The notes under the pieces are model-generated. The model was not told the DNA's origin. It worked only from the letters and a program-made list of their open reading frames with translations, and did no database searches. Below, one piece after another: positions 20,923 through 27,696 of a stretch of DNA of 64,000 nucleotides. Source of the DNA: Escherichia coli (GTDB lineage Bacteria; Pseudomonadota; Gammaproteobacteria; Enterobacterales; Enterobacteriaceae); NCBI RefSeq assembly GCF_046105845.1, contig NZ_CP151004.1; one strand, given 5' to 3'. Numbering within the stretch: the first letter of the stretch is position 1; every line of letters begins with the position of its first letter. The position numbers and the translations under genes are program-made.

Positions 20923-20996
20923 TGCTTTAGTAAGGGCGCGACGTCTGCGCCCTTTGCCTGATGTTCATATCTTAACTTGCTGAATTTTCGCCCTTT

Positions 20997-21031
20997 GTAG
21001 GCCGGATAAGGCGCTCGCGCCGCATCCGGCA
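20997..21031. repeat. REP palindromic unit downstream of bglX
   Basis: GTAGGCCGGATAAGGCGCTCGCGCCGCATCCGGCA; a GC hairpin at 20933-20957 may terminate bglX. Confidence 0.6.
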
Positions 21032-21173
21032 GGAAACGCCGGACCGAATATGCCTCTTAAGTATTTATCTGATTCTGCAACTGAATCCGTCCGCTCAGGC
21101 TAACCCCACCATTATCAACTATGCTTTTCTCTTAATTCGCTGAAAACAACAGTAAAAGAATGAGGAAAGCATC

Positions 21174-22091
21174 ATGCCACTCTCAAAGGTCTGGGCCGGT
21201 TCACTGGTTATGTTGGCGGCCGTGAGCCTGCCGCTACAGGCAGCTTCTCCCGTTAAAGTCGGTTCAAAAATCGATACTGAAGGCGCGCTGCTCGGCAACA
21301 TTATTTTGCAAGTGCTGGAAAACCACGGCGTACCAACGGTCAATAAAGTGCAACTTGGAACGACTCCTGTGGTGCGCGGGGCGATCACTTCCGGTGAACT
21401 GGATATCTATCCGGAATATACCGGCAATGGCGCGTTTTTCTTTAAAGATGAAAACGATGCGGCGTGGAAAAATGCCGGGCAAGGCTACGAGAAAGTCAAA
21501 AAGCTCGATGCAGAGCAAAACAAGTTAATCTGGCTGACGCCTGCGCCTGCAAATAACACCTGGACCATCGCCGTGCGTCAGGATGTGGCAGAGAAAAACA
21601 AACTCACTTCGCTTGCTGACCTGAGTCGTTATCTGAAAGACGGTGGCACCTTCAAACTGGCGGCCTCAGCAGAGTTTATCGAACGCGCCGATGCGTTACC
21701 TGCGTTTGAAAAAGCCTATGGCTTTAAGCTCGGTCAGGATCAGTTGCTGTCACTGGCTGGTGGCGACACGGCGGTGACGATCAAAGCCGCTGCCCAGCAA
21801 ACCTCTGGCGTTAATGCCGCAATGGCTTACGGCACTGACGGCCCGGTCGCGGCGCTGGGGCTGCAAACCTTAAGCGATCCGCAAGGCGTGCAACCTATCT
21901 ACGCGCCTGCACCAGTGGTGCGTGAGTCGGTGTTGAAAGAGTATCCACAAATGGCACAGTGGCTACAGCCAGTCTTCGCCAGCCTCGATGAAAAAACATT
22001 GCAGCAACTGAATGCCAGCATTGCTGTGGAAGGACTGGATGCCAAAAAAGTGGCTGCCGACTACCTGAAACAAAAAGGGTGGACGAAGTAA
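21174..22091 (+). CDS. osmF: Glycine betaine ABC transporter periplasmic binding protein OsmF (YehZ)
   Basis: 305-aa ORF with signal peptide; first gene of a four-gene ABC operon. Confidence 0.92.
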   Translation: MPLSKVWAGSLVMLAAVSLPLQAASPVKVGSKIDTEGALLGNIILQVLENHGVPTVNKVQLGTTPVVRGAITSGELDIYPEYTGNGAFFFKDENDAAWKNAGQGYEKVKKLDAEQNKLIWLTPAPANNTWTIAVRQDVAEKNKLTSLADLSRYLKDGGTFKLAASAEFIERADALPAFEKAYGFKLGQDQLLSLAGGDTAVTIKAAAQQTSGVNAAMAYGTDGPVAALGLQTLSDPQGVQPIYAPAPVVRESVLKEYPQMAQWLQPVFASLDEKTLQQLNASIAVEGLDAKKVAADYLKQKGWTK

Positions 22092-24178: not shown

Positions 24179-24910
24179 ATGAAGATGTTGCGCGATCCGC
24201 TGTTTTGGCTCATTGCTTTGTTTGTGGCACTGCTTTTCTGGCTGCCTTACAGCCAGCCGCTGTTTGCTGCTTTGTTCCCACAACTGCCACGACCCGTTTA
24301 TCAGCAGGAAAGCTTTGCAGCTCTGGCACTGGCTCATTTCTGGCTGGTGGGAATTTCGAGTTTGTTTGCGGTGATCATTGGTACTGGTGCCGGAATTATT
24401 GTTACTCGCCCGTGGGGCGCGGAATTTCGCCCACTGGTGGAAACTATTGCCGCCGTTGGGCAGACTTTTCCGCCCGTTGCGGTGCTGGCGATTGCCGTTC
24501 CGGTGATTGGGTTTGGTCTGCAACCCGCGATTATCGCCTTGATCCTTTACGGTGTGCTGCCCGTCCTGCAGGCGACACTTGCCGGGCTGGGAGCGATTGA
24601 TGCCAGCGTGACAGAAGTTGCGAAAGGTATGGGAATGAGCCGTGGTCAGCGACTGCGTAAGGTCGAGCTACCGCTGGCGGCTCCGGTGATTCTGGCGGGC
24701 GTGCGAACTTCGGTGATTATCAACATTGGTACGGCGACGATCGCCTCAACGGTAGGGGCCAGCACGCTGGGTACGCCGATCATCATCGGGCTTAGCGGAT
24801 TTAATACCGCGTATGTGATCCAGGGGGCGTTACTGGTGGCACTGGCGGCGATCATTGCAGACCGCCTGTTTGAAAGGCTGGTGCAGGCGCTTAGCCAGCA
24901 CGCAAAATAA
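24179..24910 (+). CDS. yehW: ABC transporter permease YehW
   Basis: 243-aa membrane ORF. Confidence 0.92.
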
Positions 24911-24998
24911 AGGTATAACCTGCGAGCATGACGCCACCAATTCCGCCTAACGCCATAAACAGGAACAGGGCGATGACCCCAATTTTAGCTATGCGCAT
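24891..24998 (-). CDS. yohO: Small membrane protein YohO (35 aa)
   Basis: Hand translation gives [35 protein letters not shown]; GGAG Shine-Dalgarno upstream; its 3' end overlaps the yehW 3' end by 20 nt. Confidence 0.6.
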
Positions 24999-25057
24999 AA
25001 TGCACTCCTTATGTTAACGAAAGGATTGTACAGTAAAGCGCATTTGTTAACGAATCA

Positions 25058-25789
25058 TTAAATGCCGAGTGGGAAAATATCATGGCCTTGTTCCTGCCAA
25101 CTGGTGAGTTGCTGCTGTTGGGCGGAGGTTCGATTTTCACCGCACCACACCAGCAATGTACGGCCTTCGAACAGTTCAGGGCGTAGTTGATTGAGCGAGT
25201 GGGCGAGGACATCAATGCGCCATCCTTGTTGACTGGCAATCCAGCCCTCCAGCCACAGACGGGTGGTATCATGAATATTCCAGCCAACCACCAACGCATC
25301 TTTACCCTGTTTTTTACGTGCCGAAGCCAGGCAAATGGCGATGTAGTTGATCAGTACGCCGTCGAGGATCGCCAGCAGCGCCTGGAGAGTCGGTTGTTGG
25401 CACTGAAGTCGTCGGCGCAGAGGAATAAACAGATGTGTGGTGAGCGTCTGGGCGGGGTAATCCTGACCGCGCTCTTTGATCCACGTTCGCAGGCTATGCA
25501 GATTGCCGCTTTGCAGGTAAGTCAGTAATGTTTCTTGCTGATCGCGCCAGCCGTTCTGCACATCAACATTTTCATTACTGAGCAGCATTTTAACTTTGCT
25601 GACCTGCACGCCGTTGTCGATCCAGCGTTTGATCTCGCGGATCCGGTCAATATCGGCATCATTGAACAGCCGATGACCGCCGTCTGTCCGTTGCGGTTTC
25701 AGCAATCCGTAACGCCTCTGCCACGCGCGTAACGTGACAGGGTTAATATCACAAAGCAACGCCACTTCACCAATTGTGTAAAGCGCCAT
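25058..25789 (-). CDS. mlrA: MerR-family transcriptional regulator MlrA
   Basis: 243 aa; N-terminal MerR helix-turn-helix (MALYTIGEVALLCDINPVTLRAWQRRYGLL). Confidence 0.93.
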   Translation of the reverse strand: MALYTIGEVALLCDINPVTLRAWQRRYGLLKPQRTDGGHRLFNDADIDRIREIKRWIDNGVQVSKVKMLLSNENVDVQNGWRDQQETLLTYLQSGNLHSLRTWIKERGQDYPAQTLTTHLFIPLRRRLQCQQPTLQALLAILDGVLINYIAICLASARKKQGKDALVVGWNIHDTTRLWLEGWIASQQGWRIDVLAHSLNQLRPELFEGRTLLVWCGENRTSAQQQQLTSWQEQGHDIFPLGI

Positions 25790-26010
25790 CGTCTCACCCT
25801 TGCTCGCGAGGTCCCGGTTTAACTTTAGACGCAGTTTTGCGAACCAGGTAGTTTTGCCCGTTTTTTGTGCATCTATAGGGTGATTTTATTTTTGCCAGGC
25901 GATTTTGAGTGATCGTACTCACGAATTCTCATTTTTCTGCAAGAGTTCAAAGAAAGTTAAACGCAGGCAATGTATGTTACGCGTTTTAAAGGGAAGTGTG
26001 GTTTGCGGGT

Positions 26011-27696
26011 ATGTACGATTTTAATCTGGTGTTGCTGCTGCTTCAGCAGATGTGCGTTTTTTTAGTCATTGCGTGGTTAATGAGTAAAACGCCATTATTC
26101 ATACCGTTAATGCAGGTCACGGTTCGTCTGCCGCATAAATTTCTCTGCTACATCGTCTTTTCCATCTTCTGCATCATGGGCACCTGGTTTGGGCTGCATA
26201 TTGACGATTCTATTGCCAATACCCGTGCGATAGGCGCGGTAATGGGCGGCTTACTCGGCGGTCCGGTCGTCGGTGGGCTGGTTGGTCTGACCGGCGGGTT
26301 ACATCGATATTCGATGGGGGGCATGACCGCGCTAAGTTGCATGATCTCGACCATCGTTGAAGGGTTGCTCGGCGGCCTGGTACACAGCATCCTGATCCGT
26401 CGCGGGCGCACTGATAAAGTCTTTAACCCCATTACCGCCGGTGCCGTCACGTTCGTCGCTGAAATGGTGCAAATGTTGATCATCCTGGCGATCGCCCGAC
26501 CTTATGAAGATGCGGTGCGTTTGGTGAGTAATATTGCTGCGCCAATGATGGTCACCAATACCGTCGGCGCGGCGCTGTTTATGCGTATATTGCTCGATAA
26601 ACGCGCGATGTTTGAAAAATACACTTCGGCTTTTTCTGCCACTGCGCTAAAAGTGGCTGCCTCGACGGAAGGCATTTTGCGCCAGGGGTTTAACGAAGTG
26701 AACAGCATGAAAGTGGCACAGGTGCTGTATCAGGAGCTGGATATTGGTGCAGTCGCGATTACCGATCGAGAAAAATTGCTGGCCTTTACCGGAATTGGTG
26801 ACGACCACCATTTACCCGGCAAACCGATTTCTTCGACTTATACCTTAAAAGCGATTGAAACCGGTGAAGTGGTCTACGCTGATGGCAACGAAGTACCTTA
26901 TCGTTGCTCTTTGCATCCGCAATGCAAACTGGGATCGACGCTGGTAATTCCGTTGCGTGGCGAAAATCAGCGGGTGATGGGCACCATCAAATTGTATGAA
27001 GCCAAAAACCGTTTATTCAGTTCAATCAACCGCACGCTGGGCGAGGGGATTGCGCAACTGCTTTCGGCGCAGATCCTCGCCGGGCAATATGAGCGGCAAA
27101 AAGCGATGCTCACCCAGTCAGAGATCAAACTGCTTCACGCCCAGGTGAACCCCCATTTTTTGTTTAATGCGCTTAACACCATTAAAGCGGTGATCCGCCG
27201 CGACAGCGAACAGGCCAGCCAGCTGGTGCAGTATCTTTCCACTTTTTTCCGCAAAAACTTAAAGCGGCCTTCGGAGTTTGTTACTCTCGCAGACGAAATT
27301 GAACATGTGAACGCTTATCTGCAAATTGAAAAGGCGCGCTTCCAGTCGCGGTTGCAGGTCAACATTGCTATTCCGCAAGAATTATCCCAGCAGCAATTGC
27401 CCGCGTTTACCCTGCAACCGATAGTGGAAAACGCCATTAAACATGGGACATCACAACTGCTCGATACAGGGCGAGTGGCAATCAGCGCCCGACGTGAGGG
27501 GCAACATTTGATGCTGGAGATCGAAGACAATGCCGGTTTGTATCAACCGGTAACCAATGCCAGTGGGCTGGGGATGAATCTGGTGGATAAGCGTTTACGT
27601 GAACGGTTTGGCGATGACTATGGGATAAGCGTCGCCTGTGAGCCTGATAGTTACACCCGAATAACGTTACGACTACCATGGAGGGACGAGGCATGA
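26011..27696 (+). CDS. btsS: LytS-type sensor histidine kinase BtsS (YehU)
   Basis: Start at [11 protein letters not shown] gives 561 aa; 5TM-LytS, GAF and His-kinase regions ([14 protein letters not shown]). Confidence 0.93.

Follow-up and report, generated by a model that had tools for sequence, protein, structure and literature searches.

A 35-codon open reading frame on the minus strand of an Escherichia coli genome encodes a hydrophobic peptide and ends 20 nt inside the last codons of yehW, the convergent final gene of the osmF-yehYXW transporter operon. The locus raises two questions: whether so short a frame is a gene at all and, if it is, whether its entanglement with yehW has a function, for instance the antisense interference between the two transcripts whose potential was pointed out in a preliminary description of this DNA. 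We analyzed the site within a stretch of 64,000 nucleotides, called the window below; all positions are those of the window unless stated otherwise.

Identity of the yohO Gene

The genes and signals at the site are the following:

24891..24998, minus strand: yohO coding sequence, ATG start, 35 codons and a TAA stop (ORF list, NF010225, RefSeq, AF2 model, conservation)
25005..25010, minus strand (read 25010->25005): yohO Shine-Dalgarno sequence AAGGAG, 6 nt 5' of the yohO ATG (sequence and orthologue consensus)
24179..24910, plus strand: yehW, ABC transporter permease of 243 aa, final gene of osmF-yehYXW (Pfam BPD_transp_1, 4.3e-28; RefSeq)
25058..25789, minus strand: mlrA, directly upstream of yohO on the same strand after a 59-nt gap (NCBIfam NF011617, 551 bits; RefSeq)

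An ORF scan of the 3 kb around yohO returns 47 frames of at least 20 aa, and thus a length of 35 codons is by itself within chance expectation. The identity of the frame is established by its product, which scores 80.1 bits with the NCBIfam equivalog NF010225 (protein YohO; cutoff 57), its residues 1-35 aligning with positions 1-35 of the profile; sequence searches of Pfam, PADLOC, and PDB gave no match to the peptide. RefSeq names the trio at this site yehW, yohO, and mlrA. The frame is the same gene as yohO of E. coli K-12 (b4542; NF010225 / PRK13681; RefSeq WP_001216963.1), with the same neighbors yehW and mlrA, and a single base in the 61 nt compared distinguishes the window strain from MG1655. 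The product has the features of the YohO family, namely about 35 aa, a single hydrophobic helix, and a core that is conserved both in the alignment and in an independent protein search, and the position of the gene is orthologous, with yehW or bglX on one flank and mlrA or btsS on the other. Within the species, 701 nt around the site are found in 5423 of the 5426 complete E. coli genomes with an identity of 95-100%, and the region is single-copy (median of one place per complete genome).

A spurious reading frame was considered and discarded in view of the NF010225 match, the RefSeq annotation, the conservation, the dN/dS values given below, and the Shine-Dalgarno sequence. Translation, for which ribosome profiling or epitope tagging had been suggested as the check, is positive in published work: YohO was seen by top-down mass spectrometry in a 2025 proteomics paper, and Ribo-seq coverage over yohO is given in the sPepFinder preprint, which cites Hemm et al. 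2008 for this gene. The gene names, the strand, the Shine-Dalgarno sequence, the hydrophobic product, and the 20-nt convergent overlap had all been read correctly from the sequence, as the ORFs, NF010225, and RefSeq agree. What had been overlooked is that yohO was annotated and published before, and that it has a conserved ArcA-bound promoter of its own despite the presence of mlrA 59 nt upstream.

Thus yohO is a genuine, independently transcribed, and well-translated gene. It is also a known one: the gene, its product, the end of its transcript, the ArcA site, and the label of an excludon are all in print or in RefSeq. Its recovery confirms the annotation of a well-studied genome and illustrates that a small-protein gene can be recognized from raw sequence, which changes little. 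The comparative details described here are new as far as could be found, yet they are refinements only.

Orthologous Loci and Selection on the Reading Frame

Only 17 matches to YohO were found among 1.84 billion representative proteins, several of them frameshifted or chimeric calls, which indicates that the YohO family is small. Orthologous loci were therefore collected at the DNA level, by a degenerate pattern for the core peptide applied to species genomes. At least 120 loci were obtained, and every one listed belongs to the Enterobacterales. The pattern itself fixed core residues 19-28, so that the invariance of these residues, including that in the alignment, is partly circular; the same core, however, appears in the independent protein search. 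The tests for selection were based on yohO codons outside the fixed core.

Of the 118 complete loci listed for other species of Enterobacterales, 116 have a frame of 34-37 codons. Pairwise differences outside the core are most frequent at the third codon position, less so at the first, and least at the second, and dN/dS, pooled over the matches listed, comes to 0.31 in codons 2-18 and 0.20 in codons 29-33. The core of the Shine-Dalgarno sequence is present in 109 of 114 loci among the matches listed, as AGGAG in 86 of them. To judge by these substitution patterns, the yohO reading frame is under purifying selection.

History of the Locus

The gene order in E. coli is bglX, osmF-yehYXW, yohO. 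Of the 115 informative loci among the matches listed, 98 have yohO next to yehW; the other 17 lack the transporter in the immediate neighborhood of yohO. Represented among these 17 are Erwinia, Dickeya, Brenneria, Affinibrenneria, Lonsdalea, and three others. In 13 cases yohO converges on bglX, either directly or across one gene, and the encoded protein has 63-83% identity to the BglX protein of the window. In these 13 loci bglX is 53-235 nt away from yohO, or about 630-800 nt when a gene intervenes, with neither an overlap nor a transporter operon. The transporter cassette is thus present in some species and absent in others between the conserved neighbors bglX and yohO.

The opposite flank also varies. 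In about eight species mlrA is missing upstream of yohO (loci L005, L008, L018, L020, L046, L074, L112, and L117). There btsS lies 200-390 nt upstream in the divergent orientation, and the overlap of yohO with yehW is unchanged. The retention of yohO in the species that lack mlrA at this place argues that its transcription is independent of mlrA.

Several minor observations concern the surrounding genes. Four Brenneria loci (L037, L066, L088, and L091) carry a gene of about 180-200 aa (MPLTEVILVDE...) between yohO and bglX, as well as a gene for a LysE-like protein of 210 aa (…FPALALAHFVALLSPGPDFFLL…) upstream of yohO on the same strand. In the window, the gap between bglX and osmF (20923-21173) is 251 nt long, against 148 nt in strain M217 (L001); the approximately 103 extra bases are possibly a repetitive element. 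For btsS (25996-27696, plus strand), the longest frame from the GTG at 25996 encodes 566 aa, whereas the RefSeq product has 561 aa and starts five codons later.

The Shared Codons of yohO and yehW

The overlap itself consists of two features:

24891..24910, both strands: dual-coding stretch of 20 nt, encoding F30-G35 and the stop codon of YohO, and L238-K243 and the stop codon of YehW
24908..24910, plus strand: yehW stop codon TAA, the reverse complement of positions 2-3 of yohO codon 30 and position 1 of codon 31

Among the matches listed, the two genes overlap in 97 of the 98 loci that have a complete adjacent YehW C-terminus, by 26 nt in 52 loci, 20 nt in 38, 23 nt in six, and 17 nt in one. 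The sole adjacent pair without an overlap among the 98 listed is that of Sodalis sp. dw_96, where a gap of 10 nt separates the genes. Every overlap length keeps one relative reading frame, and the length follows that of YohO, with proteins of 34, 35, 36, and 37 aa giving overlaps of 17, 20, 23, and 26 nt. The yehW stop codon, in turn, is placed at a constant distance from the yohO core in 97 of the 98 loci listed. The codon pair 30 and 31 of YohO is always NTY followed by ATY (Phe, Val, or Ile, then Ile), which reads as TAA or TGA on the opposite strand.

In this frame the third codon position of each gene faces the second position of the other, and therefore no base change is silent for both. 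The two proteins bear the consequences unequally. Over the overlapped codons, pN/pS amounts to 0.08 in yohO but 1.89 in yehW when the overlap is 26 nt long, and to 0.34 and 0.66, respectively, when it is 20 nt long. This asymmetry identifies the YohO tail as the constrained partner, which the YehW tail mostly follows. At the same time, 35 of the 38 loci with a 20-nt overlap and 47 of the 52 with a 26-nt overlap retain YehW His241. Its retention demands that the third base of YohO codon 33, nominally synonymous, stay fixed, and some constraint thus runs in the other direction as well.

Taken across the compared loci, these patterns show that the overlap is ancient and is pinned by YohO codons. 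It is a tidy case of two genes that have shared 20 nt for a very long time, with the smaller protein dictating the shared sequence, including the stop codon of its partner.

YohO Protein and a Possible Partner

YohO, which gives its name to the family, is an inner-membrane protein of 35 residues with a single helix. The AF2 model, built with 34 orthologues, consists of one helix from residue 3 to residue 34 (pLDDT 87.9). The N-terminus is basic, one face of the helix is rich in glycine and suited for packing (G18-G19-I-G21-G22...A26-G27), and Tyr28 is invariant. These features suggest that YohO acts by pairing with itself, or with some larger protein of the membrane, in a helix-helix contact through G18xxxG22xxxA26 and Y28.

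KdpF, AcrZ, CydX, and MgtS are E. coli small single-helix membrane proteins that bind larger membrane complexes. YohO shares with them its size, the single hydrophobic helix, a small-residue packing motif, and a gene beside a transporter; it differs in that it has no known partner, is encoded outside the operon of any such partner, and occurs in no solved complex. The likeness thus concerns a possible working mode, not family membership.

By analogy with KdpF, AcrZ, or MgtS, YohO might serve the OsmF-YehYXW betaine transporter as an accessory or regulatory subunit. The adjacency of yohO to yehW described above, which among the loci listed holds even where mlrA is missing, and the small-residue packing face typical of such partners would fit this role. 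However, a 3' overlap that resists separation would preserve the linkage of the two genes in the absence of any shared function. Moreover, yohO and the operon are neither cotranscribed nor co-regulated, being convergent, with separate promoters and regulators; the 13 loci listed with yohO beside bglX keep the gene where there is no transporter cassette; and a profile search of PDB returned no solved structure with a YohO-like chain. We therefore consider such a role very improbable.

Promoter of yohO and Its ArcA Site

Upstream of yohO, the following elements were located:

25025..25030, minus strand: predicted -10 hexamer of yohO, TACAAT (TATAAT in most species; orthologue conservation)
25044..25064, plus strand: ArcA box (18-bp match at 25044-25061), spanning the mlrA stop codon and the yohO -35 region (Park et al. 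2013)
25012..25018, plus strand: second TGTTAAC box, spaced from the first by 33 nt, in the yohO 5' UTR and at the predicted transcription start

Among the matches listed, 112 of 114 loci have a -10-like hexamer, located 25-28 nt upstream of the start codon in 106 cases, and its columns are at least 90% conserved. Transcription would start near position 25018. The consensus of 111 unique upstream sequences is TTAAtg.TTcaTTAACa...gcttc.c.gTATAATc..t..gTTAACA.aAGGAGcacat.ATG.

Binding of ArcA to this region has been observed in vivo. Park et al. 2013 (PMC3798270; Tables S1, S3, S4, and S8) list 'yohO' among 176 ArcA ChIP regions, with the box ttgttaacgaatcattaa, which matches exactly one place in the window and is conserved among the orthologues as TTAAtg.TTcaTTAACa. 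The gene thus combines published in vivo binding of ArcA at its promoter with a recognizable box, as expected for a member of the ArcA regulon. The second TGTTAAC is, from its sequence and position, a candidate ArcA half-site; among the matches listed, 63 loci have at least two TTAAC boxes, and in 59 of these the spacing is exactly 33 nt. This arrangement resembles that of ArcA promoters with multiple direct repeats (PMC3798270), in that yohO has a ChIP peak and an 18-bp box, with a further TGTTAAC three 11-bp turns away.

The location of the in vivo site at the promoter suggests that ArcA represses yohO and that expression is probably higher with oxygen. In Shigella flexneri, the yohO mRNA changes by -2.96 log2 without oxygen, and the effect of FNR is not significant. 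On the other hand, Table S8 of Park et al. 2013 (PMC3798270) classes yohO as 'lowly expressed' and does not call it ArcA-regulated under the anaerobic conditions of that study. In this respect yohO differs from the ArcA regulon described there: no differential call was made for it in the arcA mutant, and the anaerobic drop is seen only in the Shigella data.

A separate observation is that TGTTAAC-type boxes are present in 91 of 95 yehW-linked loci and absent in 14 of 19 loci without yehW, among the matches listed.

Transcript Ends and the Meaning of the Antisense Overlap

Two published features define where yohO transcription ends:

24832..24890, minus strand: yohO 3' UTR, with a Term-seq 3' end at 24832, inside yehW and antisense to it
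24600..24700 (about 24650), minus strand: region of Rho-dependent termination of yohO read-through, antisense to yehW (Adams et al. 2021)

Supplementary file 1 of Adams et al. 2021 gives a yohO 3' end at MG1655 2215813(+), 'primary' and 'antisense' to yehW; the entry occurs three times in a file that spans three growth conditions. Mapped to the window through the segment 24892->24832 with one mismatch, this end lies 59 nt beyond the yohO stop codon, and the mRNA accordingly covers the final 79 nt of yehW. Supplementary file 2 adds a Rho region at 2215995(+), 182 nt past the 3' end (score 5.6, p 9e-16), whose coordinate was carried to the window by offset under the assumption of no indels. A transcript of the minus-strand frame, ending inside yehW, is therefore on record along with its translation, and the outcome that had been named as fatal to the proposal, the lack of both, did not occur. 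No yehW-sense 3' end appears in the Term-seq lists of Adams et al. 2021, and a scan of the yehW strand found no intrinsic-terminator-like site between its stop codon and that of yohO. RNAalifold detected no conserved structure in the yohO 3' UTR and the overlap, a weak negative, as the ungapped stack of 98 sequences ignored the indels of the YehW tail. A hairpin formed by ATGCGC and GCGCAT over the Shine-Dalgarno sequence and start codon of yohO was considered as a yehW terminator or a translational switch and rejected, as other species start with ATGAAR and have no such pairing.

Taken together, the data fit best a description in which yohO is a real gene with its own promoter, the overlap is mostly a frozen structural accident, and the RNA complementarity is a by-product; we hold this to be probable. 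With the osmF-yehYXW cassette placed between bglX and yohO, the yehW frame continues into the end of yohO and is closed by the stop codon that YohO codons 30 and 31 form, at their junction, on the opposite strand. Since YohO requires residues 30 and 31, the yehW stop would be immovable; the YohO tail is the constrained one, and the last 6-8 residues of YehW largely follow it. As there is no room for a terminator between the genes, each mRNA would finish inside the other gene, that of yohO stopping 59 nt into yehW, with Rho halting the read-through. The resulting complementarity of at least 79 nt would then be a by-product that causes at most mild interference.

Some observations sit less easily with a frozen accident. 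The overlap survived in 97 of the 98 loci listed, even though one early stop codon in the YehW tail, which is under weak constraint, would suffice to abolish it; the overlap or the YehW tail could itself be selected, and both the conservation of His241 and the place of the pair in the core excludome, described below, count in that direction. For the part concerning ArcA control, the classification of yohO by Park et al. 2013 is the contrary evidence.

The excludon label takes its meaning from reciprocal expression and from dependence on RNase III. ExcludonFinder (NAR 2025, PMC12288877) includes yohO-yehW among 165 convergent excludons detected in half or more of the 58 MG1655 RNA-seq samples, the core excludome. 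The pair resembles the other convergent excludons of that catalogue (PMC12288877) in having opposite-strand neighbors with overlapping transcripts, and it is listed by name; it differs in that the mean intergenic distance of E. coli excludons is 95 nt, whereas here the coding sequences themselves overlap. For such a pair any co-expression scores as an excludon, so that the listing is almost automatic, adds little, and is no demonstration of interference.

A functional convergent excludon would set an oxygen- and ArcA-responsive yohO against a sigma-S-dependent osmF-yehYXW, with colliding polymerases, or RNase III acting on an RNA duplex of at least 79 nt, making the two outputs partly exclusive and with the overlap maintained by selection. 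The core-excludome listing (at least 50% of the 58 samples), the yohO 3' end and Rho region within yehW with no separating terminator, and the retention of the overlap in 97 of 98 loci listed are consistent with it, as is the use of distinct regulators, ArcA for yohO and sigma-S for the osmF operon, the latter according to the title of Checroun & Gutierrez 2004. Against it, the hard-wired stop codon accounts for the retention of the overlap, yohO persists with no adjacent yehW in 17 loci among the matches listed, no conserved RNA structure was detected in the overlap, no yehW-sense 3' end has been reported, and neither reciprocal-expression nor RNase III data for the pair were found in the literature. 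In our estimate this reading is rather unlikely. Antisense interference between yohO and yehW is physically possible, given the transcript overlap of at least 79 nt and the catalogue entry, and to this extent the preliminary description stands; an effect on either gene is hypothetical, and no source found in the literature shows the expression of one altered by the other.

The combination of a small hydrophobic peptide with antisense transcription across its gene also recalls type I toxin-antitoxin modules, in which case YohO would be a membrane toxin restrained by an RNA from the opposite strand. A sigma-70-like site on the plus strand within yohO (24973-25001, ATGACC-17-CATAAT, 9 of 12 matches), directed antisense toward mlrA, could be imagined to drive such an RNA; but one promoter-like site was found against 1.2 expected by shuffling, so it is probably due to chance, and the known antisense transcript is an mRNA. 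The Shine-Dalgarno sequence of yohO is strong, exposed, and conserved, and the protein is readily detected in unstressed cells. PADLOC gave no match, and instead of the patchy, multi-copy distribution of such modules, yohO is single-copy and vertically inherited, with fixed synteny across families and more than 100 species. A toxin-antitoxin function is thus extremely improbable.

A bolder proposal is that the overlap is a selected switch from oxygen to osmoprotection, in which, once ArcA leaves the yohO promoter in air, convergent transcription together with RNA pairing trims or destabilizes the 3' end of the osmF-yehYXW mRNA, or YohO docks on YehW or YehY. We consider this distinctly improbable. 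If it were true, the state of respiration would tune betaine uptake across all Enterobacteriaceae. Should the overlap couple ArcA-controlled yohO to the betaine transporter, the pair would be among the few convergent pairs with a demonstrated physiological role, and YohO would have its first function.

Finally, two further ends in the published data concern the neighboring genes. An ORF-internal Term-seq 3' end lies about 48 nt into mlrA (window ~25741, minus strand; MG1655 2214904), just past a hairpin at 25785..25763 and a T-run, which were also picked up by a simple terminator scan; this may be an attenuator in the first mlrA codons. A published Rho region about 50 nt into osmF (21174-22091), at window ~21224 on the plus strand by offset (MG1655 2219421), suggests that transcription of the transporter operon ends prematurely under standard growth.
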